A stretch of DNA of 63,067 bases from a virus (IMGVR_UViG_3300033808_000012:1-63067), one strand, 5' to 3'. Positions 753-27,611 are shown, counted from the first letter of the stretch. The notes: a model not told the origin generated them from the letters alone. Made by a program: numbers and translations.

Positions 753-976
753 ATCAGCTCCGCAATGATCTGGCGTGCATCTATGCCGAGCGCTGAGGAT
801 ATATCGAGTAGACGGCTGACGGAGACGCGATTCGCACCCGTCTCGTATTTGTGAATCTGCTGATAGCTGACGCCAGCGCGCTTGGCGAGCCATTCTTGCG
901 ATTGACCGCGCCGAAGCCGATGTGTGCGGATTAGTTCGCCGATCTGAACGTCTATGTCAGTCGGTTTGTTGTTCAC
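749..976 (-). CDS. XRE-family HTH regulator
   Basis: IGELIRTHRLRRGQSQEWLAKRAGVSYQQIHKYETGANRVSVSRL; GTG start coupled to the recombinase stop. Confidence 0.85.
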   Translation of the reverse strand: MNNKPTDIDVQIGELIRTHRLRRGQSQEWLAKRAGVSYQQIHKYETGANRVSVSRLLDISSALGIDARQIIAELI

Positions 977-1932
977 AGTCCGCTCTCTCGCACGCCAGGG
1001 TTGGCAAGAGCCGATTTCCCCTGAATGTAAGCCATATAAATCTGAGGCGTCTTGTGACGGCTCAACTCCATGCCGTCCTTCATGCTTACCTTCGCGTCGT
1101 TCATATCCGTGATCCGACCACGGCGCGTCGAGTGTGCGCCAATGCGCGCTGGATCGAGCTTCAGCTTCGGATTCAGCCGAGCGTATTCCTTCAGCGTCCA
1201 CGCCACCATCTGGCCAGTGAGGCGCGTGCCACGGCGCACGTCTACGAATAGCGGCGCGGTTGGCTCTTGGCTCGCCTTCGCCATTGTCGCGCGATGCGCC
1301 AGCCAGGCTTCCAGAGCCGCTACAGGGCAGCTCCCGTTGCCTGTGCGCCGAATACCTAGCACGACGCCATGCCCTTCTTGGTCGGTCTTAGAGCGACGGA
1401 TATGCACCAGCAGATCGCCGTGCTCGTCGGGTGCGATGTCTTCCAAGTTCAGCGCCACAGTCTCTGAGCGGCGCAGTGCTACGGCGAAATGCACGAGCAG
1501 CATCGCCCGGTCTTTGAGGCCCTGCGGCGTATCGGTCGGGATTAGACCGATTAGCTCCTTGAGTTTCTTCGATCCGATGGCTTCCTTCGGCGTATGCCGA
1601 TTGCCCTTACGCCGCAGAATTTCTTTCCATGTATCTTTGAGGATCGCCGCGTCAAGATCGTAGTACATGCGATTGGGGTCTTCTTTCCCTAGCCGATCCT
1701 TCTCGGCAGCATGGACGGCGCGGATCGCGGCGAGGCGTTGGCTAAGTGCGCTGGTCGAATGCGCGTGCTCGCGCGCCAACAGAAACTTGGCGATCATCTC
1801 GGGTGCGGCGGGGACGGTGAGAATGTCTTGCTGATTGCAGAACGCCTCCCAATCTTTCCACACATTCGCATAGGCGAGCTGAGTCCCCGGAGACCAGCGG
1901 CCTTTCTTAAAGCTCACAATAGGTTGTGTCAT
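973..1932 (-). CDS. tyrosine recombinase, Cre-like
   Basis: KDRAMLL..LRRSE, RSKTDQ, AHSTRRG, SRHK, late Tyr; N-terminal core-binding domain. Confidence 0.9.
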   Translation of the reverse strand: MTQPIVSFKKGRWSPGTQLAYANVWKDWEAFCNQQDILTVPAAPEMIAKFLLAREHAHSTSALSQRLAAIRAVHAAEKDRLGKEDPNRMYYDLDAAILKDTWKEILRRKGNRHTPKEAIGSKKLKELIGLIPTDTPQGLKDRAMLLVHFAVALRRSETVALNLEDIAPDEHGDLLVHIRRSKTDQEGHGVVLGIRRTGNGSCPVAALEAWLAHRATMAKASQEPTAPLFVDVRRGTRLTGQMVAWTLKEYARLNPKLKLDPARIGAHSTRRGRITDMNDAKVSMKDGMELSRHKTPQIYMAYIQGKSALANPGVRESGL

Positions 1933-12784: not shown

Positions 12785-15226
12785 ATGGCGGTTTCCTTCC
12801 GATACGACCCTCCGGGCGCGCAGTTGCGTGCCTTTCGCGTATCCGGCGCGATGTGTCGGGCGCTGATCGGGCCGCTTGGTGGCGGGCGCGAGAAGTGCGC
12901 GGTCTACGATCTGCTGACGCGGAGTATTCTCAGCTCGCAGAAGCGCTGGCGCTGGCTGGTGCTGCGGGCAGACGCGGCGACGCTCGAAGAGCAGACGATC
13001 CCGCTCTGGCATTCGGTCGTTTCAAGCGAGACAGGCGAGTGGGATGCCAGAGCCGGACGGCACGCCTTCAAGGTGCAGACCCGTGAAGGCAAGTTGACGC
13101 ATTTCGATGTGCAGTTTCTGGCACTTGACCGTCCCGAGCATCGGCGGCGGTTCGCTACGCTGGAGGCATCGGGGCTATGGCTCGACGGCGCGCGGGATAT
13201 CGAGAAAGCCGTTTTCGAGCGCTGCCTGGAGATCGCGGGATCATGGCCGCAGGAAGAAGCGGCCATGCCGATGATCCTTTGCACGAGCCTGATGCCGCCC
13301 GCCGATCATTGGTTGGCGCTCGATCCCGAAGTGAAGCTGTTCCGCCAGCCAGGCGGTCGCAGCGCCGAAGCAGAAAACTTCAAGGCCAAGGGCGGCGAAT
13401 TGCCAGCAGGCCATTATGAGCGGCTGGCGAAAGGGCGCAGCGCTGAGTGGGTGCGCGTCAATGTGGACGCGGAATGGTCGGGGCAGGCCGGAACGCCGGA
13501 AGAAATCACCGCGCGGTTGGATCGCCAGAAAGCCGAACGCGAAAAACTCTATTCGTATTATCCCGACGCAGGGCCGCTGCGCCGCGAACTCTACTCCAAA
13601 CACACGGAGTTTTTTGCTGCCGGTAAAAGGCACCAGGAGCGTGCCTTCATCGGCGGCAACCGCACCGGCAAGGCGTTGCTTAATGGCACGCCAGTTTTAA
13701 CGCCAAATGGTTTTCAAGTAATTGAAAGCCTGAAAATTGGTGATACTGTTATTGGAGGCGATGGGAATCCTTGTTACGTAACGGGTGTTTTTCCACAGGG
13801 AATTAGGGAAACGGTGAAGCTCGTTTTTGATGATGGTGCTTCTGTCGTTTGCGACGTTGATCATCTTTGGAAGTGTCGCCAAGGAAAAGAACGATATAAT
13901 GGCGATGAGTGGAAGGTCAGAACGACTAAAGACCTTCTTGCTAAAGGTGCTGCCGAAGGAGATCCGCAGAAGGTAGCCGAGATTCCAGTTTGCTCATCTT
14001 ATATGACACAACGAGAAGTTTTTATGGACCCATACGTATTGGGTTTGATGCTTGGCGACGGCTGCTATACTGGTTCAAGTCCAACTCCTTCTATTTCGTC
14101 CGCTGACCCTGAAATTATTGAATATTTGAATGAACATTACGCAACGCGACATGCGAAAGAGACTAGTCCTTATACCTATTGGATTAAGGGAATGGTTGGA
14201 ACCCTTAAGGGAATGGGTATTTGGGGTATGTATGCTTATGAGAAGTCCATTCCGCGTGACTATTTGCTGAATAGTCGGCCTGTACGATTAGCAATTTTAC
14301 AGGGTTTGATGGATACCGATGGGTATGTTGAAGAAAGCGGTAGCCATACGGAATTTTACACGACATCGCCATATCTTCGGGATGACGTTACATTTCTGGT
14401 GAGATCGCTTGGCGGAAAAGCAAAAAGCGTAGCGAAGACCGGGCATTGGTATAAAGATGGCGAAAGACATGAAGGCCGCGAGGGTTGGCGCATTCATATC
14501 ACGATGCCGATTTGTCCTTTCCGATTAAAACGGAAAGTTGAGCGATGGCATCCATTGATAAAAGTATCCGGCAATCGCCGGATTGTTTTTGCTGAGCGAA
14601 TGAGCGACGGAGAGTGCACCTGCATCTCGGTTGACGGTCCCGATCATACGTTCGTGACCAACGATTTCATCGTCACCCACAATTCATTCTGCAACTGCTA
14701 CGAAGCGACCCTCCACATGACGGGATATTATCCCGAGTGGTGGGAAGGTCGGCGCTTCGATCGCCCGGTAGTGACGTGGGTGGCGGGCGAAGATGGGAAG
14801 GCGGTTCGTGAATCGCTGCAACCTCTGCTATTGGGGCCGAGCGAGGCCTACGGTACGGGGCTTATCCCTGGCGACAAAATTGCGCGTACTGGCTCGGCAC
14901 GCGGCATGGCGGATGCGGTCGATTTCGCGGAAGTTCATCATGTATCTGGCGGGCGAAGCCGGTTGCTGTTCAAGACCTACGAGCAGGGACGCGAGAGCTT
15001 CCAGGCCGCGCAGGTAGATCACATGCTCTTCGATGAAGAGCCGCCGAGGTCGATCTATTCCGAAGGGCTGACCCGGACGATGAGTACCGAACCGGGCAAG
15101 CCCAATGGGATCGTGACTTGCGGTTTTACGCCGCTGAAGGGCATCTCGGAGACTGTGCTGCACTACCTGCCGGGCGGCCGGATGCCGGAGACCGAAGAAT
15201 TACGCATGGCCGCGTGGGGTTGGTGA
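12785..15226 (+). CDS. terL: terminase large subunit, N-terminal part: degenerate ATPase domain fused to a P22-gp2-like ATPase interrupted by an intein
   Basis: GGNRTGK|intein|S Walker A, TGYYPEWWEGRRF, FKTYEQGRESFQ, FDEEPP, FTPLKG. Confidence 0.9.
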   Translation: MAVSFRYDPPGAQLRAFRVSGAMCRALIGPLGGGREKCAVYDLLTRSILSSQKRWRWLVLRADAATLEEQTIPLWHSVVSSETGEWDARAGRHAFKVQTREGKLTHFDVQFLALDRPEHRRRFATLEASGLWLDGARDIEKAVFERCLEIAGSWPQEEAAMPMILCTSLMPPADHWLALDPEVKLFRQPGGRSAEAENFKAKGGELPAGHYERLAKGRSAEWVRVNVDAEWSGQAGTPEEITARLDRQKAEREKLYSYYPDAGPLRRELYSKHTEFFAAGKRHQERAFIGGNRTGKALLNGTPVLTPNGFQVIESLKIGDTVIGGDGNPCYVTGVFPQGIRETVKLVFDDGASVVCDVDHLWKCRQGKERYNGDEWKVRTTKDLLAKGAAEGDPQKVAEIPVCSSYMTQREVFMDPYVLGLMLGDGCYTGSSPTPSISSADPEIIEYLNEHYATRHAKETSPYTYWIKGMVGTLKGMGIWGMYAYEKSIPRDYLLNSRPVRLAILQGLMDTDGYVEESGSHTEFYTTSPYLRDDVTFLVRSLGGKAKSVAKTGHWYKDGERHEGREGWRIHITMPICPFRLKRKVERWHPLIKVSGNRRIVFAERMSDGECTCISVDGPDHTFVTNDFIVTHNSFCNCYEATLHMTGYYPEWWEGRRFDRPVVTWVAGEDGKAVRESLQPLLLGPSEAYGTGLIPGDKIARTGSARGMADAVDFAEVHHVSGGRSRLLFKTYEQGRESFQAAQVDHMLFDEEPPRSIYSEGLTRTMSTEPGKPNGIVTCGFTPLKGISETVLHYLPGGRMPETEELRMAAWGW
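13673..14683 (+). mobile_element. class 3 intein (337 aa) with LAGLIDADG homing endonuclease
   Basis: Ala1 start ALLNGTPVLTP, block B DHLW, block F CTCISV, ends VTHN|S; LGLMLGDG and LQGLMDTDG motifs; lower GC than flanks. Confidence 0.92.
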
Positions 15227-15442: not shown

Positions 15443-16214
15443 ATTCGTTGTCCAAACTTCGTGGCAAGAAACCGCACACCTTTCGGCGGAAGCCAAGGCT
15501 GAGCTTGAGGCATCGTATCTGCCGCATGAGCGCGCCGCTCGCACGATGGGCATCCCGTCGCTTGGCGCGGGCGTCATCTATCCTGTCGCTGAGCAAGAGG
15601 TCGTCGTCCAGCCCTTCGAGCTGCCGAAATATTGGCGGCATGCTTATGGCCTTGATGTGGGCTGGAACCGCACGGCGGCAGTCTGGGGCGCGCTCGATAC
15701 CGAGTCAGATATCCTCTACCTCTATTCCGAGCACTATCGCGGCGATGCCGAGCCTGCTGTGCATGCGCAAGCCATTAAGTCACGCGGCGCGTGGATACCC
15801 GGCGTGATCGATCCTGCATCGCGCGGTCGCACGCAGACCGATGGGCAGTCGCTCCTCAATATCTACCGCTCGCTTGGTCTGACCTTGACCGAGGCGGACA
15901 ATTCGGTGGAGAGCGGCATTTATGACATGTGGACGCGGCTCTCGACGGGACGGCTCAAGGTCTTCTCGACGCTGACCAACTGGCTCGGCGAATATCGGAT
16001 TTATCGGCGCGACGAAAAAGGTCGTGTCGTGAAAGAACACGATCATGCGATGGACGCTTCGCGATATCTCGTAAGATCGGGCTTGGCGCTTGCCTCATTT
16101 CGCCCTGCCAACGAGTGGCGCTCGGCGATCCCGGCGCTTGCCAACCGCAGGCGCGAAAAGGAATGGACGCCGCAAGCCGCGCTTGACGCTGATCGCTATG
16201 GGATGGTGGCGTGA
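15435..16214 (+). CDS. terL: terminase large subunit, C-terminal part (RNase H-like nuclease); probable ATC start
   Basis: GLDVGW, IDPASRGR, HDHAMDASRY; the conserved upstream segment SWQETAHLS..ELEASYLPHERAART is in frame back to ATC 15435. Confidence 0.85.
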   Translation: MTKFVVQTSWQETAHLSAEAKAELEASYLPHERAARTMGIPSLGAGVIYPVAEQEVVVQPFELPKYWRHAYGLDVGWNRTAAVWGALDTESDILYLYSEHYRGDAEPAVHAQAIKSRGAWIPGVIDPASRGRTQTDGQSLLNIYRSLGLTLTEADNSVESGIYDMWTRLSTGRLKVFSTLTNWLGEYRIYRRDEKGRVVKEHDHAMDASRYLVRSGLALASFRPANEWRSAIPALANRRREKEWTPQAALDADRYGMVA

Positions 16215-16305
16215 ACGAATGGCTGCTGCTCGGCCTATGGGCGGGATTTATTGGCCTCCTGAAATTCAATGCCTGGATTAAGCGGGATATCGCCGAGACG
16301 CTGGG

Positions 16306-16749
16306 ATGGGGACGACGCTGAGTATTTTTGGCGGCGGCGGCGGGGGTGGGGGCGGTGGCGGGACGCCCCCTGTGCCGACGATTTCGGCACCGCCAGGCAC
16401 GGGCACGGGCAATCTGCCCGCCGCTTCTGCGGCGGGACCGACGATTCCACCCGATTTCCAGCTTCCGACGGGATGGACGATGGCCGGTATGGGAGCGGGA
16501 CAATATGTTCAAGACCCAACGGGTTCAATCACCTACCTGGCGAACATACCGCAAGGCGCAGAGACGATGTTGACGACGAGCGGTTACTGGGGGCAGGCAC
16601 CCACAGCAGGCGCGGCCTCTGCCAATCCAGCAGCGGTCAATCCGGCATCGACCCCAATGCCATCGACTTCAATTCTTGGCGCTCCGCCAGTGCCCCAGCA
16701 GAATCTTCTGGGATCGAGCGGCGCGGGCAAGACATTGTTGGGGGCATAG
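16306..16749 (+). CDS. Gly/Pro-rich pre-portal virion protein, copy 1
   Basis: SIFGGGG...KTLLGA. Confidence 0.65.
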   Translation: MGTTLSIFGGGGGGGGGGGTPPVPTISAPPGTGTGNLPAASAAGPTIPPDFQLPTGWTMAGMGAGQYVQDPTGSITYLANIPQGAETMLTTSGYWGQAPTAGAASANPAAVNPASTPMPSTSILGAPPVPQQNLLGSSGAGKTLLGA

Positions 16750-16751
16750 CA

Positions 16752-16967
16752 GTGAGTATTTTTGGTGGCGGCGGCGGCGGTTCTCCTCCTCCGCCGCCTC
16801 CTCCTCCTCCGCCGCCGCCTAATCCGCCACAGGTCTCCAATGCAGCGGTGCAGACAGCGGGCGCATCGCAGGCGGCTTTGGCGGCGGCGGGATCGCAGTC
16901 GATCTTCACCAGCCCCGAAGGTGCGCCGAACGCACCGACGACGAACAAGAGTTTGCTAGGCCAATAG
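16752..16967 (+). CDS. Gly/Pro-rich pre-portal virion protein, copy 2
   Basis: GTG start; SIFGGGG-polyP...SIFTSPEG...KSLLGQ. Confidence 0.7.
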   Translation: MSIFGGGGGGSPPPPPPPPPPPPNPPQVSNAAVQTAGASQAALAAAGSQSIFTSPEGAPNAPTTNKSLLGQ

Positions 16968-18800
16968 ATGGCTCAATCAAAAGCCACCAAACGCTATACG
17001 AATGGCCTTGATGCCGAGCAGCCGTATTATTTTGAGGCCAGCCCGACACTGCTGGCCGAAGAACCGGCGTTGCCGAGTACCAAGCCCGTCAAGCTGCCAT
17101 CCAATCTTGGCTGGCCGTCGCTCTATCGCCACCTTGAAGCGCGACTTGCCGCCGAGAAGACCTGGCGGCTTTCCTGGTGGCGGCATTGGGGCGATATCGC
17201 TCGTTTCGAGTTGCCGCGCCGCTATCACGCTTTCATCTACGAGAACGATTTCAATCGTGGCATCCGCCGCGATGGCGCAATCCTTGACGACACCGCGACG
17301 CTCGATGGGCAGACCTGCGCGGGCGGCATTATGACGGTCTGCACCGATCCGGACCGCGAATGGTTGAAACTTGGTGCGGGCATACCGGGTCTTCAGCTTG
17401 ACCGCGCTGGCATGATGTTCTTCGAGGATTTGACTGAGCGCCTGCGCTACATCCAGGACCAGACCAACTTCTACGAAAGCCTGTCGCAGTTTTACGAGGA
17501 CGAGGTTTTCTTCGGCACGGGCGTCGCCATCGACTACGAGGACAAGGATAACGTTTTCGTCTGCCGCAATCCCTGTGCGGGCGAGTATTGCCTGACCTCT
17601 GGCGCGGACAATGAGAACCAGTCGCTTTATGTTGAAGAGCGCCGCACCATCGCCCAGATTGTCGAGATGTTTGGGTTAGCGAACTGTCCCGAGGCGGTGC
17701 GCAATCAGTGGATGCAAAAGGGTGGCGCGCTAGAGCAAGAGCACGTCGTCGGTCATGCCATCGAACCGAACTATGCGATCTATGACGATAAGGGCGGCGA
17801 AGCGGGCAAACTTTCCGGCAATTTCACCTGGCGCGAAGTCTATTGGCTGATCGGCAAGGCCGGTGACGGCCCGCTATCGATTGCGGGCTTCCAGGAGAAG
17901 CCGTTTGCCGCCGCGCAGTGGCATCGCGTCTCCAATGATCCTTATGGGCGCGGTCCTGGCTCGACGGTGCTAGGCGATGTGATCCAACTTCAGATCATGG
18001 TCGCCCGGCAGTCCGAATTTATCGAAAAGATGGTGCGACCGCCGATGACCGCGCCGGTCGCGCTCAAAAACGAGCCGCACTCGATCAAGCCTGACCAGAT
18101 CACCTACTATGACGCGGCGACGGGTGCGCCGCAGATGAAGCCGATCTTCGAGGTCAACGGCGCGGGACTCCCTGCGATCAACGAAGCCATCACGGCGACG
18201 CAAGAACGCATCCATCGCGGCATGCACGCCGATCTCTTCCGCATGATTGAGCAGCTTCAGGAGAACGTAAAGCGCGACGTGACGGCGACGGAGATCGATG
18301 CGCTGCGCGAAGAGCGGCTGATGCAGCTTGGCCCAGTGATTGGACGTGTCTATCGCTACGGATTGAAGCCTCGCATCCAGCGCCAGCTTGCAATCATGCA
18401 CCGTCGCGGCCTCTGGCCGAAGGTGCCCCCGAGCCTGCACGGCGTACCGCTGCATGTCGATTTTATCTCGATGCTGACCTTGGCGCAGCGCGCCGGATCG
18501 GTGAATTCGATTCAGCGGACCTTTGCCTTTGCGCAGTCCTTGCAGCCGGTTTTCCCCGAGGCGATGGATACGCTCGATCCCGACGAGGCGATCCGCGAGA
18601 CATCGAACCTCTTGGGCGCGTCGTCGCGGATCATTCGCGGGCAGCGCCAAGTCGCGCAGCTACGCCAGCAGCGCCAGAACCAGCAGCAAGAGATGGCAGC
18701 GGCGCAGGCCGCAATGGCGGCAACGCAGGGTGCCAAGAATCTAGGGCAGGCTGCGATGACCAATCAGAGCGCCTTGGGCGCTATCGCGGGCGCGGGCTGA
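16968..18800 (+). CDS. portal (head-tail connector) protein
   Basis: FFGTG, DPYGRGPG, RPPM, VTATEI..LREE...LGPV, DFISML. Confidence 0.93.
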   Translation: MAQSKATKRYTNGLDAEQPYYFEASPTLLAEEPALPSTKPVKLPSNLGWPSLYRHLEARLAAEKTWRLSWWRHWGDIARFELPRRYHAFIYENDFNRGIRRDGAILDDTATLDGQTCAGGIMTVCTDPDREWLKLGAGIPGLQLDRAGMMFFEDLTERLRYIQDQTNFYESLSQFYEDEVFFGTGVAIDYEDKDNVFVCRNPCAGEYCLTSGADNENQSLYVEERRTIAQIVEMFGLANCPEAVRNQWMQKGGALEQEHVVGHAIEPNYAIYDDKGGEAGKLSGNFTWREVYWLIGKAGDGPLSIAGFQEKPFAAAQWHRVSNDPYGRGPGSTVLGDVIQLQIMVARQSEFIEKMVRPPMTAPVALKNEPHSIKPDQITYYDAATGAPQMKPIFEVNGAGLPAINEAITATQERIHRGMHADLFRMIEQLQENVKRDVTATEIDALREERLMQLGPVIGRVYRYGLKPRIQRQLAIMHRRGLWPKVPPSLHGVPLHVDFISMLTLAQRAGSVNSIQRTFAFAQSLQPVFPEAMDTLDPDEAIRETSNLLGASSRIIRGQRQVAQLRQQRQNQQQEMAAAQAAMAATQGAKNLGQAAMTNQSALGAIAGAG

Positions 18801-19470: not shown

Positions 19471-19826
19471 GCGATGATCGCGATTTTGCCCATCTTGCCG
19501 ACACGAGCATTGAAGACGCGCTTGATCCGGGCGCTGCCGAACGACGCGAAGACGAAGATCGTGGACGCAAACGGCAGCACGAACGCCGTCGCCAATGGCT
19601 TATCCAGATCATGCAGCACCCTGAAGGCCGAATTTGGCTCAAGGAAGTGCTCGACGAATTTCATGCCTTCGAGACACGGTTTGCCGCCGTCAATGGCCTC
19701 GCGCCGGACCAATACGGGACGTGGTTCCGCGCGGGTGTGCAGCAATGCGGCTGGAAGCTCTGGGAGCAATTTGATGAGGCTGATCCCGTGACGGCCTCGC
19801 GCATACGACGTGGTGAAAATCTCTGA
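19467..19826 (+). CDS. Bbp19-like protein
   Basis: IMQHPEGRIWL...TWFRAG.QQCG pattern; lies between portal and scaffold. Confidence 0.7.
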   Translation: MSDDRDFAHLADTSIEDALDPGAAERREDEDRGRKRQHERRRQWLIQIMQHPEGRIWLKEVLDEFHAFETRFAAVNGLAPDQYGTWFRAGVQQCGWKLWEQFDEADPVTASRIRRGENL

Positions 19827-20638
19827 TGTCTGATGTTCGCGTAGAAACTCCTGCCGCCGCGCCTGTCGCGGTTCCTCCTGCCGTTGTCGAACCGGTTGCG
19901 CCCGCGCCTGCTCCTGCTCCCGCTCCCGCGCCAGCGGTATTGAGCGAGCCGCCTGCGCCGCAACCGGCACCCGCTCCGGCGTCGGTTCCTGAGCCGTCAG
20001 CCCCGGCTCCAGCAGCGCCCGCGATACCTCCCGCAGCCGCTGCGCCGACGCCGGAATCTGTTGCGCCGCCTGCGCCAGCCGCACCGCCGACTTATCAATT
20101 TGCGTTCCCTGAGGATCGTCCCGCCGACAATGAATTGGTCGATGGCGCGAAGACGCTCTTCGCCGAAGACGGATTAAAGCAGGATCAGGCGCAGCGGTAT
20201 GTCTCGTATTTCAATGAAAAAGTGCTGCCGAAAATCGAGACGCAGATTGCCGAACGCAATCTCGCGACTTGGGAAAACACCAAGAGCCAATGGCGCAGCG
20301 AATTCGATAATGATCCGACTATCGGTGGCAATCGGCGCGATACGACGGTGAATGCCGCGCGGTTTGGCATTCGCGATGTGATTGGCGCAGACGAAGCGCG
20401 CCTCAAGGAGTTCCGCGATATGCAAGAAGCGATGGGCATCGGCAACCATCGCGCCGAGATTGGTGCGTGGGCCGAGGTCGGTCGCCGCATGCAACAAATC
20501 TACGATTTGACGGGCACGGATAATTGGACCGCTGCCATGAAGAAACTCTCTGAACCATCCGCACCGCCGCCGTCGCAACCGGCGCGGCCTTCGGGCGGTC
20601 CAGGTAGTGCCGCCGACCGCCGTTACGGCAGACGCTAA
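19826..20638 (+). CDS. capsid scaffolding protein
   Basis: Pro/Ala-rich N-terminus, L.QDQAQ, DPTIGG, GIGNH; directly upstream of the major capsid gene. Confidence 0.8.
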   Translation: MSDVRVETPAAAPVAVPPAVVEPVAPAPAPAPAPAPAVLSEPPAPQPAPAPASVPEPSAPAPAAPAIPPAAAAPTPESVAPPAPAAPPTYQFAFPEDRPADNELVDGAKTLFAEDGLKQDQAQRYVSYFNEKVLPKIETQIAERNLATWENTKSQWRSEFDNDPTIGGNRRDTTVNAARFGIRDVIGADEARLKEFRDMQEAMGIGNHRAEIGAWAEVGRRMQQIYDLTGTDNWTAAMKKLSEPSAPPPSQPARPSGGPGSAADRRYGRR

Positions 20639-20660
20639 ACTCAACAGGAGCTAGGATCAA

Positions 20661-21716
20661 ATGGCTACGGGACAATACCTTACGCTGGTTGACTTGGCCC
20701 GCCGTACCGACCCGGACGGCGAAGCCGCCGATATTGCCGAACTGCTCTCCCAGGCGAACGAGATTTATGACGATCTCGTTTGGAAGGAGGGCAACACCAA
20801 CACGGGGCACGTCTATACGATGCGCACCAGCATTCCGAAGGGATGGTGGCGCTTTATCGGTCAAGGCGTGCCGGGGTCGAAATCCACGACCGCCCAGGGT
20901 CGCACGGACTGCGGCGATCTGGAAATGCAGTCCACCATCGATCTGCGCCTCATCGAAATGGCGCGCGATCAAAACCAGTTCCGCTATGAAGAAGACAACG
21001 CCATCCTTGAAGGCGCGTCGCAGACCATCGCCAACCAGTTCTTTTATGGCAACGCGACGACCAATCCGGCATCGTTTACCGGCTTGTCGAATTACTACAA
21101 CACCGTCACGGTAGCGAATGCCGCCAATGCCGCGAATGTCTTCGACGGCGGCGGCAGGGCCAGCAACAATGCCTCGCTCTGGCTCATCGGCTGGTCGCCG
21201 CGTTCGATCTATGGCGTCTTCCCGCGCGGCATGCATGCAGGCGTTGAATTGACGCCGCTCGATGAGGTCGTGCTGGCCTACGACAATCTCGGCAATCCCT
21301 ATCGTGCCAAGGTGACGTGGTTCCGTCAGATGGCCGGAATGGCGGTCGAGGACTGGCGCTGGGGCGGTCGCATCTGCAATCTCGATGTGACCAGCGCTGC
21401 CGCTGGTGGTCTCGCCGGGCCGAACGCCTACGATATCTTCGTTGGCCTCTCGAAGCTCGTCCTTCGCCTGCCGAAGATGGCGCGCAACGAGAGTGGCGTC
21501 ACTGATACTGATGCCCGCAATGAACGCGGCATGACCGTGCGGCCAGCAATCTACGGCAATCGTACTATTCGCGGCTTCATGGACATCCAAGCGATTCGTG
21601 ATCGCAACGTCCTTTTGGGACCGCGCGATTACGCTGGCGAGCCAGTCACGAGCTTCCGTGGCATTCCGATCCGCGTGAATGACCAGCTTACTTCAACCGA
21701 AGCGCAGGTGACGTGA
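20661..21716 (+). CDS. major capsid protein (BPP-1 Bbp17-like)
   Basis: LTLVDLARR.DPDG, IAELLSQ.NEI, FFYGN, DWRW..RICN, FRGIPIR..DQL. Confidence 0.93.
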   Translation: MATGQYLTLVDLARRTDPDGEAADIAELLSQANEIYDDLVWKEGNTNTGHVYTMRTSIPKGWWRFIGQGVPGSKSTTAQGRTDCGDLEMQSTIDLRLIEMARDQNQFRYEEDNAILEGASQTIANQFFYGNATTNPASFTGLSNYYNTVTVANAANAANVFDGGGRASNNASLWLIGWSPRSIYGVFPRGMHAGVELTPLDEVVLAYDNLGNPYRAKVTWFRQMAGMAVEDWRWGGRICNLDVTSAAAGGLAGPNAYDIFVGLSKLVLRLPKMARNESGVTDTDARNERGMTVRPAIYGNRTIRGFMDIQAIRDRNVLLGPRDYAGEPVTSFRGIPIRVNDQLTSTEAQVT

Positions 21717-21755
21717 TCGCCAAGCCGATAACCTTTTTAACGTAGGAGCATTCCG

Positions 21756-22280
21756 ATGCTGTTGGATTCTCAGCTTACCCTTGACCTGAATTCCAGCCTT
21801 GCGATTGCGGCTGGTAGTCAGGCATCCGCCAATACGCTCGATTGGGCGGGGGTTGGTGCAGGCACGGCACCGCCGAACTATTTTGGCGTGCAGAATGCTG
21901 TCTTCGGGCAGGATATCGGCATCGGCGATGGCGAGAGTCCGCCAGTGCTGGTCTGCATCGTCGGGACGACATTCGCGAGCTTAGGTGCTGCGACGCTCAA
22001 TGTTGCGTTGCAGGCTGCGGTCGATAGCGGCTCGCCGACCTATCAGCCCGGCGCCTGGGACACGATTGCCGAAACTAGCGCTTTGCCGCTTGCCTCGTTG
22101 ACGGCGGGGACGAAGATCGCGGAATTCACGATTCCGCCGCGTCAGCCCGGTCAGGCGTTCCCGCGCTTCTTCCGCCTCAACTATACGGTTGGGACGGCGA
22201 CGATGACGGCGGGGACGATTGCCTACGCTGGCATCGCGACGGGCCGTGACGACGCGCCGATTTATCCCGCCAACTACTGA
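21756..22280 (+). CDS. capsid cement/decoration protein (Bbp16-like)
   Basis: MLLDSQL..S.N.LD..DIGIG..RFFRLNYTV; follows the major capsid gene. Confidence 0.8.
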   Translation: MLLDSQLTLDLNSSLAIAAGSQASANTLDWAGVGAGTAPPNYFGVQNAVFGQDIGIGDGESPPVLVCIVGTTFASLGAATLNVALQAAVDSGSPTYQPGAWDTIAETSALPLASLTAGTKIAEFTIPPRQPGQAFPRFFRLNYTVGTATMTAGTIAYAGIATGRDDAPIYPANY

Positions 22281-22290
22281 GGTCTGATCG

Positions 22291-23265
22291 ATGCCTCCTG
22301 GACGCCCTGATATGCGGCTGCGCGAAAATCGCGAACGGTTCCATCTTGAACCAAGTGATATCGCGCTAGCCGGGCACGAGCAGGACAATGACGGCGAAAT
22401 CCTTTCCGATCAGCAATTAGGCATCGGCGAGGAAACGCAGCCTGCTCTTGTCGCGCCTGAAGTGAGCGATGCGGATCGGATCACGGCAGCGATGTCCGAT
22501 CCGATCATTGCCAAGGCCATCGAGCAATTGGTGGAGCAGCGCATCGCGGCATTGGCTCCTGCCGCCGTGGCAACGCAGCAGCAGCTTTCTGGCGATGATT
22601 TGCTTGCTGCAATGCGGGCGCTGGGTGAACAGATCGCGGCATCGATCAATCGCACGACGCAGGCAACGGTCGAGCAGATGCCGGGCCATGTGAAGCCAAT
22701 TCCAGTGGAAGAGGTTGAAGCCCGCGCGGCGGCCTATATCGAGATGGCAACGCTCCTGAAGGACGGGCAGCGGCGCTATTTCGATTTCGCCGATAAAGGC
22801 GATATGCTCAAGGCCAACGACGAAATCCCGGTTTACCTCTTGGAAGAGGATTTCTTTGGCGAGGATGGATCGGGCGGCGGCGAGATGTTCCTGCAAGGCG
22901 AGACCATCCGCTGGTTCCGCGCGCCCGGCACTTACATGCGCCCACAGAATGAATCGGCAAAAAAAATCTCTGAGGCAATGTGGCGTTATATCGGTGGCGA
23001 AGCCGGGCCGTCAGCAGAAGAACTTGCCGCGCAAGCATCGCAGATGCGTAGGCCGAGCGCGGCAATGGGTTTGCCTATCCCGGAGCTACCGTCATTGACC
23101 CCGCGCGCACCGCTTGCGGGATCGCGCGTTGAGGGCATCGAGCGCGTCGAGACAGGACCGAACCGCATCAATGGGACAGTAGTTAGGGAGATGAGCGGCG
23201 GACGTGGCCGTAATAACCAGCCGCGCATCGTCAGCGGCGGCATGGGCGATGGGATGTCTGTTTAG
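22291..23265 (+). CDS. hypothetical protein
   Basis: Long ORF in the structural operon. Confidence 0.7.
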   Translation: MPPGRPDMRLRENRERFHLEPSDIALAGHEQDNDGEILSDQQLGIGEETQPALVAPEVSDADRITAAMSDPIIAKAIEQLVEQRIAALAPAAVATQQQLSGDDLLAAMRALGEQIAASINRTTQATVEQMPGHVKPIPVEEVEARAAAYIEMATLLKDGQRRYFDFADKGDMLKANDEIPVYLLEEDFFGEDGSGGGEMFLQGETIRWFRAPGTYMRPQNESAKKISEAMWRYIGGEAGPSAEELAAQASQMRRPSAAMGLPIPELPSLTPRAPLAGSRVEGIERVETGPNRINGTVVREMSGGRGRNNQPRIVSGGMGDGMSV

Positions 23266-23691
23266 ATGGGCATACCGTCGAACACGCACGCGCCGACAGG
23301 GGCCAATGCGCTTGGCTCGACCGATCTTGCCAATGGCGGTTTTGTCGGCACGTTTACGGCAGCGGCCACTACCAGTCCCTATTATGCTTTTCAGGGCGCG
23401 TTCAATGTTGTCTTCGGTGGCCCGAGCGGTCCAAATGGGACATGGAGCGGATCAATCCAGCTTGAGCGCAGTTTCGACGGCGGCGCGACCTGGTACATCT
23501 GTGGTGTCGGCGGCGGTGGTCAGCAAGCGATCTACAGTACATCAAATCAGGACGTGTCGTTTGTTGCGAGCGAGCCGGAACAAGGCGTGCTCTATCGACT
23601 GCATTGCACAGCGCTTACCGCAGGTACGGTGAATTATCGTATGACCACGACCAGCCCGGCGCCGACCGCTTGGGGCATTCCGACAGCCTAG
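23266..23691 (+). CDS. putative virion beta-sandwich protein
   Basis: LERSFDGGATW Asp-box-like motif, YRL.CTA.T.GT..YR. Confidence 0.65.
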   Translation: MGIPSNTHAPTGANALGSTDLANGGFVGTFTAAATTSPYYAFQGAFNVVFGGPSGPNGTWSGSIQLERSFDGGATWYICGVGGGGQQAIYSTSNQDVSFVASEPEQGVLYRLHCTALTAGTVNYRMTTTSPAPTAWGIPTA

Positions 23692-23700
23692 GGGAGCAAC

Positions 23701-24222
23701 ATGAAACGGCTCTTTGCATTCTTTGGCGCGCTGCTCTTCGCCACGGCGGCTTTCGCGCAGGGCACGGGTCTCACGGGTTTCCAATTCCCGAGTGTGCCGT
23801 GGCAGTCCTATGCGCCAGGGCGTGTTCAATGCGGTTGGCTGAACGGCGCGAACTTCAATACGACGGCAGACCAGAAGATTACGCTGATGGTGCCGACATC
23901 AACGTACATGATCGATCAGATCGTCATCTCGGCACCAAGCGTTTCGATGACGACGGCGGCAGGCGGCTTTTACAGTGCCGCGAGCAAAGGTGGAATTGCT
24001 GTCGTGGCTTCGACCCAGACCTATACAAGTTTGACGACTAATGCCGCCAATACGACAGGTAATGCCATGTTGGCGACTTTGGCAACAGCAGGCAACACGA
24101 CCGAGTTTACGATCCCGACGACCGGTTCTCCGGTCCTTTATCTCTCTTTGACTACAGCGCAAGGGGCGGCTGCCACTGCGAATGTGCGCATATTCTGTCG
24201 CCCGCAATACCCTGTTACCTAG
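23701..24222 (+). CDS. secreted Thr/Ala-rich protein
   Basis: Signal peptide MKRLFAFFGALLFATAAFA|Q; two Cys. Confidence 0.75.
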   Translation: MKRLFAFFGALLFATAAFAQGTGLTGFQFPSVPWQSYAPGRVQCGWLNGANFNTTADQKITLMVPTSTYMIDQIVISAPSVSMTTAAGGFYSAASKGGIAVVASTQTYTSLTTNAANTTGNAMLATLATAGNTTEFTIPTTGSPVLYLSLTTAQGAAATANVRIFCRPQYPVT

Positions 24223-24240
24223 TCAATCCCACGAAGGAGA

Positions 24241-24735
24241 ATGAGCATGCGTAAGTTTCTTGGTGGGGTTGCCGCCGCAGCCCTCATTGCTCTGTCGAGC
24301 GGTGCTCATGCGCAGTTGACGACCGCGCCTACGGCGATCACAACGACCAATCCCTCAACTGATCTCGTGCCGTTTGTTCCAGGCGGTCGCGCCGGGCCGT
24401 CACAGCAATATACGCTACCGAACTATATTGCTGGTGCCCCAGCCTATGTGGATGAAGGCGCAGTCGGCACGGCTTGGTCGTTTACTTTCCCGAACGGCGT
24501 GACTGACTTCATCATCCGGCCAACGGGCACGCTGGCAACGGGGACGATTACCACTGCGCCTAATCCGGTTGACGGTCAGCGCGAATGCTTCCTATCGACG
24601 CAGACGCAAACTGCCATAACGTGGACCGCGAATACGGGACAGACTGTGACGGGCGCGGCGACAGCAGGCGTCGCCAATACGCCGCAGTGCATGGTCTACG
24701 AAGCTCCGGTGCAGACTTGGTATCGCTCACCCTGA
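24241..24735 (+). CDS. secreted Thr-rich protein
   Basis: Signal peptide ..MRKFLGGVAAAALIALSSGAHA|Q; two Cys. Confidence 0.75.
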   Translation: MSMRKFLGGVAAAALIALSSGAHAQLTTAPTAITTTNPSTDLVPFVPGGRAGPSQQYTLPNYIAGAPAYVDEGAVGTAWSFTFPNGVTDFIIRPTGTLATGTITTAPNPVDGQRECFLSTQTQTAITWTANTGQTVTGAATAGVANTPQCMVYEAPVQTWYRSP

Positions 24736-24784
24736 TCACGGGACGCATCCTGGGACTATTGCTGATGGTGGCAATAGTCCCAGG

Positions 24785-25744
24785 ATGGTATCAACTCGCA
24801 TCTGCGCCACGATGGATCGCTGCTGCTTTTGGACTCAGCCTCTTGCTTTGGCTCTTGCCGGATGGGCAGTGCTCTCGCTGCTTTGGTCGCCACAGCCACT
24901 CGACGGAATAGGGGCGCTCTGGCATTGGGCAATCCTTGGCATGGCGTTTCTGATGGGATCGCGCGGGAGCGCTACAATGATCTATCAGGGCGCAGCGATA
25001 GGATTGGCGATCAATTCGGTGGTTGTTCTTACTCACGGACGAGCGGGATTATTCATCAACAAGGACTTTCTCGCCGAGGCAGCATTGCCAGTAGCAGTCT
25101 GGTTGATCTGGACACGTCGTTGGCTGCTGCCGTTCATCCTCCCGTCGCTTTTAATACCGCAATCCAGAGCGGTTTTATTGATCGGCGTGCCGATGCTGCT
25201 TTGGCCGTTCAGCCGCATTGGGGCAACAGTTCTTGCTGTGATGCTGATCTTGATGCTGACAGTCTCGCTCACACTCGTTTGGCCGCTGGACCGCTCGAAA
25301 AATGAGCGATTGGCGATCTGGCAAGATACGCTGCGTGGGGTAACGATTCTTGGGCGCGGCATTGGTCAGTTTTACGGCACCTTCCCAGAAATGGCGGTTC
25401 ACGAGGATACGTCCGCACGACGCCCGCTCCATGCGCACGATGATTTCCTTGAAATCCTCTATGAGCTTGGGCCAATCGGCTTTTGTCTCGCCGCCGCCTT
25501 CATGCTCTCGCTCTTTGGCGCAGGGGACGGCGTTTGGCTCTACGTCTTCCTGGCCGTTGTGCTCGATGCGTTGGTGGCGTTCCCCTTCCAGAATCCCGCT
25601 TCTGGCATCTTGGCGATGGTCGCTGCGGGTGCTCTTTACCGCAATAATCTGCGCGATGGCTCTGCTAGATTTTCGCGCACAGATCATGTTGGCGCGCGGC
25701 ACTTCGCCCTTGGCGGCGGCGCGGGCATGGCCGGTCGATCCTGA
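24785..25744 (+). CDS. O-antigen ligase / O-oligosaccharyltransferase-like membrane protein 1 (Wzy_C)
   Basis: GLFINKDFLAE, QSRAV, ERLAIWQ, G.GIGQF, HAHDDFLE.LYELG.IG, FPFQNP. Confidence 0.8.
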   Translation: MVSTRICATMDRCCFWTQPLALALAGWAVLSLLWSPQPLDGIGALWHWAILGMAFLMGSRGSATMIYQGAAIGLAINSVVVLTHGRAGLFINKDFLAEAALPVAVWLIWTRRWLLPFILPSLLIPQSRAVLLIGVPMLLWPFSRIGATVLAVMLILMLTVSLTLVWPLDRSKNERLAIWQDTLRGVTILGRGIGQFYGTFPEMAVHEDTSARRPLHAHDDFLEILYELGPIGFCLAAAFMLSLFGAGDGVWLYVFLAVVLDALVAFPFQNPASGILAMVAAGALYRNNLRDGSARFSRTDHVGARHFALGGGAGMAGRS

Positions 25745-25908
25745 GTTTCGCCGCATGCTTGTTGAAGGCTCACTCTATGTTCCTGCCGCCGAGGCAAGGG
25801 CGATGCTGGATTATAATATCACCCGCGATCCGCAGGCGCGGGACGCGCGTTGGTTACGTCATTTCTTGAGGCCGTAGCATCTTGGCATCGGTTAACCCCC
25901 TGACCTTG

Positions 25909-25934
25909 GCGGGGCTTCGCAGCCCCGCTCTTTT
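25909..25934 (+). terminator. rho-independent terminator
   Basis: GCGGGGCT-TCGC-AGCCCCGC followed by TCTTTT. Confidence 0.6.
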
Positions 25935-25937
25935 CCG

Positions 25938-26117
25938 ATGCCGGTAGTCAGCCAAGCGCAGCGTGCGGCAATGCATGCTGCAGCAGAGGGAAAATCGACG
26001 CTAGGCATACCCAAGAAAGTCGGGAAGGAATTCGTCGCTGCCGATACGGGTGGCAAGCTTCCTGAATACAAGTCGGCAGCGGACAAGCGCTACAACAAGA
26101 AAAAGAAAAATGCCTGA
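25938..26117 (+). CDS. small basic protein (59 aa) with SAADKRY motif
   Basis: Hand translation [59 protein letters not shown]; below the ORF-track cutoff. Confidence 0.75.
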
Positions 26118-26274
26118 TGAGACCGAATCCTATGCCGATTACCGGATGCGGCGAGCGCGCGAAATTGAGAGCCGAAATAAAAAGATGAACAACCAATCTC
26201 CCGATGAACGTGATCTAGATCGCGAGCTTGGTAATGCGCCGATTGGCAGCGGCCAAAAGCGTCAAGATCAGTGA
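26110..26274 (+). CDS. small hydrophilic protein
   Basis: [15 protein letters not shown]...; start overlaps the upstream gene end. Confidence 0.5.
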
Positions 26275-26306
26275 TTTCTCTCGCAGACGTGGCGAGGAGA
26301 CCAAGA

Positions 26307-26591
26307 ATGGCCGAGCGTAAACATAAGTGGCTGAGTGCCGAGGCACGTCGCAAGATGCCGTCCTCGCAATTCGCATTGCCAGGGCATGGCGAAGGCCCTG
26401 GCGGCAAAGGCGCAGGCGCATATCCAATTGATACCGAAGCGCGAGCACGCAATGCCCTTGCTCGCGGCGCACAGCACGCCAGTCCAGGTGAATTGGCGAC
26501 AATCAAGCGCAAGGTTCATGCGAAATATCCTGATATTGAGATTGGCGGCAAAAAAGAATCTGCTGCTGATCGCCGTTATGGAAAGAGGTAG
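26307..26591 (+). CDS. small basic head-associated protein (DUF6582-like) with SAADRRYG
   Basis: LS.E.R.KMPSSQFALP...YPI...ARARNALAR; AGGAG RBS. Confidence 0.75.
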   Translation: MAERKHKWLSAEARRKMPSSQFALPGHGEGPGGKGAGAYPIDTEARARNALARGAQHASPGELATIKRKVHAKYPDIEIGGKKESAADRRYGKR

Positions 26592-26596
26592 CGACG

Positions 26597-27097
26597 ATGG
26601 CTGAGAAAGAAAGCGCTGCTGACAAGCGGTATGGCAAGAAGCGCGGCGAGGATGCCGAGGAAAAGCGCGAAACACCTGCGAAGGAAGCCAAAGAACGCGA
26701 TGGTCGCCCAGCGCGTGGTAGCAACAAGGCTGGGGACGGCGAGGACGATATGGCGACGCGCCACGCTGCCGAACGAGCGGAGATGCATGACCTGCACGAG
26801 CGCGAGCGTCGCGATCAGCATGGACATCATCGCGAGGAGCATAGGCAGCTCCACGAGCGTCATGAGCGCGAACATGAGGGGATTGATCACGAAGATCACG
26901 ATGCGCTCGCCAATCTTCATCGCAAGCACGAGATGGAACGGCATCAGATGCATGCGCGACATCATCATGCCCACGCTGAAATGCACCATCGGCACATGAG
27001 CGCGCGGCACGAGATGCATCAGCGGCACGAGACTGAAGTAGCCGAAGCCGAGCCAGAGGAAGGCGCTGGCGGCCCTCCAGCGCAGCAGGCGGCCTAG
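26597..27097 (+). CDS. histidine-rich helical protein with N-terminal SAADKRYG
   Basis: About 26 His in about 95 residues. Confidence 0.8.
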   Translation: MAEKESAADKRYGKKRGEDAEEKRETPAKEAKERDGRPARGSNKAGDGEDDMATRHAAERAEMHDLHERERRDQHGHHREEHRQLHERHEREHEGIDHEDHDALANLHRKHEMERHQMHARHHHAHAEMHHRHMSARHEMHQRHETEVAEAEPEEGAGGPPAQQAA

Positions 27098-27098
27098 A

Positions 27099-27611
27099 AT
27101 GGCTGGTTTCCGCAGCTTTGCCTCAATGGCGCTGAGTGACGATGAGCAATATGATTGGCTCAGAGCGCGCCAACTTGGTGGCGATCAGGCGCCGCCTGAA
27201 TATCCTTCGGGCATGTCGTTCATGGTGCGCGAGGATTTATTCGAGCAACTGGATGTGGATGATCCGCGCCCTGGCGATACGATCAGTTTCGCCGCAATGG
27301 CACAATGCACGTCGGTCAATCGGACGATGGACGGTTGCCGGATGGAGTGCGAGATCATCATATTAAAGCTCGGCGATAGCGATTTCGTCGAACTGCCGGA
27401 AATGTGCCGTCCATGTATCTGTCTCGATGAGAACGACCACGAGCGGCTGGATTTGGACGAAGATAGCGCCGAGCGCGGACATCTCATCCACATGATCGGT
27501 AGCGTTCGCGTCGAGAGCACGAATGATACAGCTTTCGGTGGCTGCGTGATGCTTCAAGTGATAGAAGCCGCCTGCGAAGATGAGTCCCAGGAGACTGAGG
27601 AGGATATGTGA
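27099..27611 (+). CDS. acidic protein with two tandem epsilon15-gp10-like units
   Basis: EYP.G...E.L....P.GD.I.F.AM..TSV and CICLD...ERL.....RG.LIH.....VES...LQV. Confidence 0.6.
   Translation: MAGFRSFASMALSDDEQYDWLRARQLGGDQAPPEYPSGMSFMVREDLFEQLDVDDPRPGDTISFAAMAQCTSVNRTMDGCRMECEIIILKLGDSDFVELPEMCRPCICLDENDHERLDLDEDSAERGHLIHMIGSVRVESTNDTAFGGCVMLQVIEAACEDESQETEEDM

Follow-up and report, generated by a model that had tools for sequence, protein, structure and literature searches.

Why should the last residues of a phage scaffolding protein reappear at the ends of other proteins made from the same head module? The question is raised by IMGVR_UViG_3300033808_000012:1-63067, a viral DNA stretch of 63,067 nucleotides that was analysed at its full length and that we refer to as the window. 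Close to the C-terminus of its putative scaffolding protein lies the heptapeptide SAADRRY, and the same heptapeptide, with R or K at the fifth position, is found at one end of three small proteins encoded further along the same strand, which we call S1, S2 and S3. We read this peptide as a portable tag that would bind the coat protein and load its carriers into the procapsid, a reading to which we give a probability of roughly 0.6.

The original prediction for this DNA had counted four copies of SAAD[RK]RY, and had taken their differing codons to mean that selection acts on the peptide. Both statements hold. The six-frame translation of the window (126,130 residues) contains exactly four copies, each at the predicted position and all on the plus strand. 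Only 0.0014 copies are expected from composition and none of 100 block shuffles gave even one, which excludes a chance origin. Any two copies agree in 0 to 3 of 7 codons and in 12 to 15 of 21 bases, and their serine codons are drawn from both families (AGT, AGC, TCG, TCT). The repeat is therefore maintained at the level of the peptide and not of the DNA; the differing codons exclude a DNA-level repeat or regulatory site, and they also disfavour recent gene conversion within the window. The shorter form [RK]RY occurs seven times in the 47 plus-strand open reading frames (ORFs) of the window (13,946 amino acids), and five of these sites, all in head-module genes, are no more than 12 residues away from one end of the protein.

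The C-terminal tag of S2 (KESAADRRYGKR) and the N-terminal tag of S3 (MAEKESAADKRYGKK) face each other over the gene junction, only about 30 nucleotides apart (26559-26632). The same back-to-back layout is present in three related loci (L010, L012, L025).

Relatives of the window were collected through the major capsid protein (MCP), which gave 27 viral contigs and 18 genome contigs, mostly alphaproteobacterial metagenome-assembled genomes, and the head regions of 15 cultured relatives were compared. The survey comprised 60 sources: besides the window there were 59 related loci, of which 14 were cultured phages. Hidden Markov models (HMMs) built from the window proteins recovered 55 scaffold, 20 S1, 8 S2, 29 S3 and 36 S4 hits across these sources, S4 being the acidic protein encoded next to S3. 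Comparing every stop-to-stop ORF directly with the scaffold tail proved too noisy, owing to off-frame ORFs in these GC-rich loci, and the family HMMs were used instead.

The tag reaches across the whole BPP-1/epsilon15 group, well beyond the window. Scaffold homologues end in a Tyr-centred tail, and four unrelated families of small proteins, S1 to S4, carry copies of it at their termini. The three small proteins named by the original prediction do carry the tag, and its scope was too narrow: at least four families are involved, plus the portal in one subclade. In every carrier family the motif lies near a terminus, C-terminal in the scaffold, S1, S2 and S4, and N-terminal in S3 and the portal. 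The alignment of 34 scaffold homologues has just 10 columns in which conservation reaches at least 90%, and the tag tyrosine (Y267) is one of them; that of S1 (Y52) is invariant in 20 of 20 homologues from 20 loci. All six complete true homologues of S2, the window included, end in a Tyr tag of the type of their own scaffold; a seventh hit, cut by a contig end, and an eighth, spurious one (L012) were left out, and tblastn gave no S2 match in cultured phages. For S3, an automatic rule detected in 29 of 29 ORFs a Tyr or Trp that lies no more than 32 residues from a candidate ATG start and has K/E/R-rich surroundings, the chosen start being off by eye in 4 of the 29 rows. A clear C-terminal tag closes 13 of the 36 S4 ORFs.

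At the portal N-terminus, [RK]RY stands within about 15 residues of the start in 7 of the 37 portal ORFs whose N-terminus was captured (the window, L001, L003, L004, L012, L013 and L014; six by regular expression, with L003 seen separately). All seven come from the window's own MCP clade, which has 17 members and contributed 10 of the captured portals. As a genuine tag, this portal copy is suggestive only.

A further tag-bearing family, the fifth, with a terminus of the form WHHG..RRY, occupies the position of S2 in four loci (L002 6536-6811, L012 16990-17307, L015 5068-5391, L025 14627-14902).

The original prediction had also named as a check whether, in related phages, the motif varies together with the scaffold tail, and it does. 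Tag types are specific to lineages, with RRY or KRY in some, a hydrophobic-Tyr type in others (LYDHP, MYTHP, GLYRS, SLY, WYDK), and AFYP or EVLYG in others again. Co-variation was scored as the best ungapped BLOSUM62 match between the last 16 scaffold residues and the termini of the cargo families, the untagged S4 tails included; phiSG1, the spurious L012 S2 hit and loci with identical scaffold 16-mers were dropped from the count. Over the remaining 33 non-redundant loci the mean score was 23.2 within a locus versus 15.9 between loci, and 0 of 10,000 permutations reached the observed co-variation. The scaffold of the same locus ranked first in 7 of the 33 loci and among the top three in 18. 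Because relatedness inflates the permutation test, we also ran a test on sister pairs. We picked 15 neighbour pairs by hand on the capsid tree; 13 of them were informative in having a cargo family in common, and in 12 of these 13 the pairing within loci scored higher than the swapped pairing (binomial p 0.0017).

The agreement is readily followed in individual loci. The scaffold ends in RGWYDKS and S3 has RDWYDKD in L046; EAMYTHPTS is paired with KAMYDNPSS of S3 in L021, and GVLYDHPSS with ETLYDHPRS of S1 in L040. In L022 the scaffold tail GLRGLYRS has counterparts in both S3 (GLRGMYGK) and S1 (KLRDMYKG), and in L002 scaffold and S4 have an identical SPAQRRY. When the R/K-Tyr and hydrophobic-Tyr states are mapped on the capsid tree, five to six changes are required, and at least four of these are forced by well-supported branches. 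The sisters L048 and L051 (support 100/100) differ alike in scaffold and S1, KRY versus SLY: the scaffold reads VAKRYGTI in the former and LNSLYGGQ in the latter, and S1 reads VEKRYGKD and PMSLYKK, respectively. The MCP columns that best separate R/K-Tyr from hydrophobic-Tyr loci lie at residues 6-113 and 264-305; as evidence for a receptor they were set aside, since tail types largely follow clades and the separation is confounded by descent.

Tail matching is also found in cultured phages. S4 belongs to the gp10/Bbp20 family: epsilon15 gp10 matches phrog_825, the family of S4, at 1.1e-44, and an S4 profile from 28 relatives matches PDB 3j40_N, labelled 'gp10', at 2e-16. In all eight cultured phages with a gene of this family, its product matches the tail of the phage's own scaffold. 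In epsilon15 the scaffold gp6 ends in DLISAFYPKK, and gp10 has KDAFYPDG and, up to its stop, ELKDAFYPDGEDD. In phiV10, Tyrion and 66FD the scaffold ends in QRSAAEVLYGK and the gp10 family member has KSAA(E/Q)TLYG close to its end. The BPP-1 scaffold Bbp18 has ARRLYAASNMNP and DARRLYAASNMNP at its C-terminus, and Bbp20 has AQRLYGASSMSA and SAAQRLYGASSMSA. BcepC6B pairs ARAAKLYDKS at the end of its scaffold gp07 with QRAAKFYANT of gp06, which ends in QRAAKFYANTPTT; CP2 pairs WNRMYPDM of scaffold ORF14 with ARMYADDPSM of ORF12, which ends in YARMYADDPSMKD; and RapA pairs DAKSLYPN near the scaffold end with RAAKLYKDTD at the end of its gp10 family member.

In Sodalis phage phiSG1 (L032 14833-16386), annotation makes the scaffold homologue a 517-residue ORF without a Tyr-tag end, and the portal is split into two ORFs. 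The head module of this phage looks degraded or fused.

What the tag binds can be approached through 66FD, a natural mosaic of epsilon15-like and phiV10-like parts. Its portal stands at 99% to epsilon15 and 80% to phiV10, and the first 150 residues of its scaffold at 97% and 67%. The order is reversed in the last 14 scaffold residues (14% to epsilon15 and 86% to phiV10), the capsid protein (43% and 84%), the cement protein (34% and 81%) and gp10 (44% and 69%), and the last third of the scaffold core is intermediate (83% versus 76%, and 77% versus 81%). The tag type thus follows the capsid module, whereas portal and scaffold core are of the other type, a pattern that fits the capsid protein as receptor. 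From this mosaic, and by analogy with the systems discussed below, we infer that the MCP is the probable receptor of the tag.

Other receptors have to be considered against the same mosaic. The tag could bind the helical core of the scaffold itself; scaffold molecules would then form head-to-tail chains, and the lattice built by them, not the coat, would take up the portal and the small proteins. T4 internal proteins go to the scaffolding core and not to the shell, and a site in the intermediate last third of the 66FD core would fit the mosaic. The portal is tagged in the window's subclade, and portal incorporation in P22 is reported to depend on the scaffold (PMC9320234). However, the 66FD core, epsilon15-like over its first 150 residues, works with a tail and a gp10 tag of the phiV10 type, and we find binding to the core quite improbable. 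The portal, or an internal core, might be the partner instead, which would make the tagged proteins portal-associated core proteins. T7-type podophages are reported to stack small proteins on the portal (PMC11784390), and among the internal proteins encoded by the window are T7 gp14-like and lysozyme-domain ones; yet 66FD combines an epsilon15-like portal with phiV10-type tags, the portal is itself tagged in the window's subclade, and hundreds of scaffold copies would hardly dock on 12 portal subunits. We hold this explanation to be highly unlikely.

A host factor (protease, chaperone or secretion component) might also read the tag, as a degron or folding signal. The tag is a short terminal peptide with aromatic and basic residues, as such a signal might be, and no phage protease is evident that would remove the scaffold. 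On the other side, tag type follows the phage MCP clade and the tag occurs at either terminus. Furthermore, epsilon15 (AFYP) and 66FD (EVLYGK) have different tags though both infect Salmonella enterica, which argues against a host receptor, and we give a host reader very little credence.

With the MCP as receptor, the tag could work as follows. The Tyr-centred peptide would be the docking element of the scaffolding protein, made up of two basic or hydrophobic residues directly before the Tyr and a small, basic or polar residue after it, with a flexible Gly/Pro/Lys-rich linker behind. It would bind a site on the inner face of the MCP during procapsid assembly. The same peptide, placed on the free C- or N-terminus of other head-module proteins, would allow these to occupy scaffold sites and so be built into the procapsid, where they may afterwards stay as internal proteins of the virion or compete with the scaffold. 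The carriers would be S1, S2, S3 and probably the portal N-terminus in the window, and the gp10/Bbp20 family in epsilon15, BPP-1 and others; the tagged proteins of the window would accordingly be expected to enter the procapsid and to have a role inside it. A more ambitious version, which we put forward tentatively, extends to the whole BPP-1/epsilon15 group. One modular address, the scaffold tail, would load unrelated proteins from either terminus, recruit the portal in one subclade and seat gp10 (Bbp20) on the inner-wall sites vacated by the scaffold, while tag and pocket would co-evolve as a lock and key that prevents head modules from mixing between co-infecting relatives.

The presence of a tagged protein in virions bears directly on loading. 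In epsilon15, the 111-residue gp10 is reported to have been identified by proteomics of infectious particles, and the outer 'staple' density once modelled as gp10 to fit a 130-residue protein instead (PMC9207676). This 130-residue staple protein is gp8, a Bbp16 homologue. From that report, gp10 is so a virion protein without an assigned place, and its scaffold-like tail suggests both a loading route and an internal location. For BPP-1, only two major bands, Bbp17 and Bbp16, are reported as identified (PMC3863775).

The main rival to loading places the tagged proteins at the same coat site as regulators of assembly. They would compete with the scaffold for coat sites, affecting nucleation, size or scaffold exit, and would not be cargo, although they may be retained in the virion. 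The closest solved precedent is indeed a competitor: the 80alpha scaffold and SaPI1 CpmB are reported to have a common C-terminal RIIK motif, to use the same coat site and to have interchangeable tails (PMC5644958). Where one phage encodes several different tagged proteins, a single site would be contested by all of them, and the scaffold tail is kept even where no tagged partner is seen. Against regulation, the tagged genes are the phage's own and are syntenic across the group, not located on a parasite element; gp10 of epsilon15 is reported in mature virions (PMC9207676); and a tag on four unrelated folds looks more like delivery. We regard regulation without delivery as unlikely. The present case resembles 80alpha and CpmB in that a second protein copies the C-terminal motif of the scaffold, the coat in 80alpha/CpmB being of the HK97 fold. 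Whereas CpmB is encoded by a satellite and shrinks the capsid, the copies described here are in the phage's own syntenic genes, found in 20-36 loci per family; they are spread over four or more unrelated families, are N- or C-terminal, possibly extend to the portal, and have no sequence similarity to RIIK.

Several points weigh against a coat-binding, procapsid-loading tag. The permutation test is inflated by relatedness, the sister pair L020/L039 scores slightly higher when swapped, and in L048 the S3 tag is KMY versus KRY in the scaffold; moreover, occasional gene conversion between tags could contribute to the co-variation. Of the S4 ORFs, 20 of 36 have an acidic tail without a tag and 3 are ambiguous. 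The portal tag is confined to loci of the RRY type and so provides no contrast. Six cultured phages (OANV1, Ab31, Vibrio 1.185.O, Acinetobacter 4316, HU1 and BUCT711) keep the Tyr tail of the scaffold with no tagged partner within the head stretch compared, and no cultured phage MCP among 102 records exceeds 39.1% identity to that of the window. As to the receptor, the scaffold tail and the MCP gene are only 13-22 nucleotides apart, so that both would be linked anyway by a single crossover at the scaffold gene's 3' end, and 66FD shows that a foreign tail with a matching MCP is viable, not that a mismatched pair fails.

"Scaffold" here is our reading of ORF 19826-20638, for which coat binding is predicted. 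The gene lies between those of the portal and the MCP, an order kept in all relatives, and its homology to epsilon15 gp6 and BPP-1 Bbp18 is limited to residues ~90-230. An AlphaFold2 model made with 34 homologues is all-helical (mean predicted local distance difference test, pLDDT, 83.4), with an unstructured Ala/Pro-rich first 100 residues, a helical core at 102-242 (pLDDT >93), a Pro-rich linker, and a short helix at 262-267 on the tag. No Pfam family was found even at E<=5, no Foldseek match in the PDB at E<=0.001, and no PDB sequence match to the scaffold profile. The 'protease' label of phrog_458 and epsilon15 gp6 goes back to a similarity note in the epsilon15 record. Pfam, AlphaFold2 and Foldseek detected no protease domain or fold in this ORF, although a novel protease could escape such matching, and Pfam recognised no protease gene among the window proteins.

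The window is a prophage-like region, and the features discussed here are collected in Table 1. It also encodes a DNA methylase, a primase-polymerase, a VapE-like helicase and a large terminase with a LAGLIDADG insert. Its head and internal genes comprise a T7-type portal, a capsid protein and a cement protein of the epsilon15/BPP-1 type, and the T7 gp14-like and lysozyme-domain internal proteins mentioned above.

Table 1. Positions of the tag copies and of the genes that carry or surround them in the window.
Feature	Position	Strand	Details
Integrase	973-1932	-	
Portal, T7-type head-tail connector	16968-18800	+	Pfam PF12236, E 3e-98
Weaker fifth copy KATKRY, candidate tag	16980-16997	+	Portal N-terminus, MAQSKATKRYTNG
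Scaffolding protein (our reading; database label 'protease')	19826-20638	+	phrog_458, E 1.9e-20; homologue of epsilon15 gp6
Tag copy 1, SAADRRY	20606-20626	+	3 residues before the C-terminus of the scaffold ORF, which ends in GGPGSAADRRYGRR
MCP, epsilon15 gp7 / BPP-1 Bbp17 type, HK97-like	20661-21716	+	Pfam PF20911, E 5.2e-93
Cement protein, Bbp16 family, without tag	21756-22280	+	Pfam PF21190, E 1.2e-11; phrog_427
S1, 59 amino acids	25938-26117	+	phrog_16759
Tag copy 2, SAADKRY	26073-26093	+	7 residues before the C-terminus of S1
S2, 94 amino acids	26307-26591 (first possible start GTG 26271)	+	phrog_16160
Tag copy 3, SAADRRY	26559-26579	+	3 residues before the C-terminus of S2, which ends in GGKKESAADRRYGKR
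S3, 166 amino acids, His/Glu/Arg-rich, low-complexity	26597-27097	+	N-terminal tag
Tag copy 4, SAADKRY	26612-26632	+	Residues 6-12 of S3, which starts with MAEKESAADKRYGKK
S4, acidic, 170 amino acids, without tag in the window	27099-27611	+	phrog_825, E 1.7e-4

The MCP has PDB sequence matches to 3j4u, 3j40 and 8cjz. S1 and S2 have no Pfam match; a DUF3008-like assignment for S1 and a DUF6582-like one for S2 are Atlas leads only, seen in 10% and 14% of cluster members, respectively. By alignment, S4 in the window's clade is a tandem duplication of the gp10/Bbp20 domain, of ~165 residues versus ~100 elsewhere. Its AlphaFold2 model is confident (pLDDT 92) and consists of two long beta-hairpin units; the best fold likeness, to OB-fold single-stranded DNA-binding proteins, is weak and a lead only (Foldseek E ~0.02), as is that to cold-shock/OB small barrels (VIA Z <=4.3). 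Unlike the tagged gp10/Bbp20 relatives, the duplicated S4 of the window has lost the tag or never had it, and the tag is found on the upstream S3, as well as on S1 and S2.

Known loading systems offer several points of comparison. Encapsulin cargo-loading peptides are short terminal peptides on unrelated cargo that bind the interior of an HK97-fold shell. The tag is likewise a terminal peptide common to unrelated proteins, here of four families, and may work like an encapsulin tag. It is not a member of an encapsulin system: encapsulins have no scaffold, portal or DNA, whereas the window has portal, scaffold, terminase and tail genes, and the peptide belongs primarily to the scaffold, whose tail it forms. 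The capsid targeting sequence (CTS) of T4 is an N-terminal address peptide that directs proteins to the scaffolding core and is removed by the prohead protease; by contrast, the tag described here is found at both termini, copies the scaffold tail, and has no evident protease to cleave it. In P22, a C-terminal helix-turn-helix of the scaffold is described as the coat-binding element (10.1101/2022.12.13.520362), and foreign proteins fused to the scaffold C-terminus are reported to be loaded into capsids (PMC9962691). Unlike that engineered fusion of a helix-turn-helix domain, loading would here be natural, if real, and the tag is about 7-12 residues long around one Tyr. The DarA-Hdf pairs of P1 are reported to sit on the inner capsid surface, and the abstract of that work mentions no shared scaffold-like peptide (PMC12810830). 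Like these pairs and the T4 internal proteins, the tagged proteins are phage-encoded, and they would be packaged in heads and delivered with the DNA.

Within the open full-text literature, which leaves subscription-only papers outside, we found no published copy of the scaffold tail on gp10/Bbp20 or other proteins of this phage group, and no occurrence of Bbp18 or Bbp20. To our knowledge, the choice of proteins that enter tailed-phage heads is understood only in a few models, namely the T4 CTS, the P22 ejection proteins and P1 Dar. If true, procapsid loading by the tag would provide a loading rule readable from sequence for a podophage lineage that is widespread and counts two structural model phages among its members; in both of these the hypothesis is directly testable. 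Internal virion proteins could then be predicted from a genome by looking for ORF termini that copy the scaffold tail, and epsilon15 gp10, placeless since the re-modelling of 2022, would gain a location and a loading route. The tag would also be a natural counterpart of engineered loading by P22 scaffold fusion, with 7-12 residues usable at either end for cargo of virus-like particles. With its co-varying types (RRY, LYDHP, AFYP, WYDK and others), the tag would offer a ready specificity series for work on scaffold-coat recognition.

Some further features of the window deserve mention. A membrane protein with a Wzy_C domain (O-antigen ligase/polymerase-like; 24785-25744) is encoded inside the head module, directly upstream of the tagged genes, and is likely a lysogenic-conversion moron. 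Between the cement protein and the tagged genes, two ORFs have signal-peptide-like N-termini (23701-24222 and 24241-24735); the pair is kept in relatives (L022 5649-6026 and 6054-6551), and exported proteins are odd in a head module. The large terminase ORF (12785-15226, 813 amino acids) has a LAGLIDADG_3 domain at residues 500-551, ahead of Terminase_6N at 634-791, and its RNaseH-like nuclease domain is a separate downstream ORF (15546-16214). This looks like an intein or homing-endonuclease insertion, and the gene is possibly split or frameshifted. Finally, a second terminal motif is shared within the group. The small protein encoded upstream of the portal (16269-16967) ends in TTNKSLLGQ, and proteins of cultured relatives end in K(T/S)LLGQ (L028 3037-3243, bbp22 in L035, L054, L056, L058 and L059); many portals have a similar ending of the form AL(S/G)A(L/I)(L/V)G.

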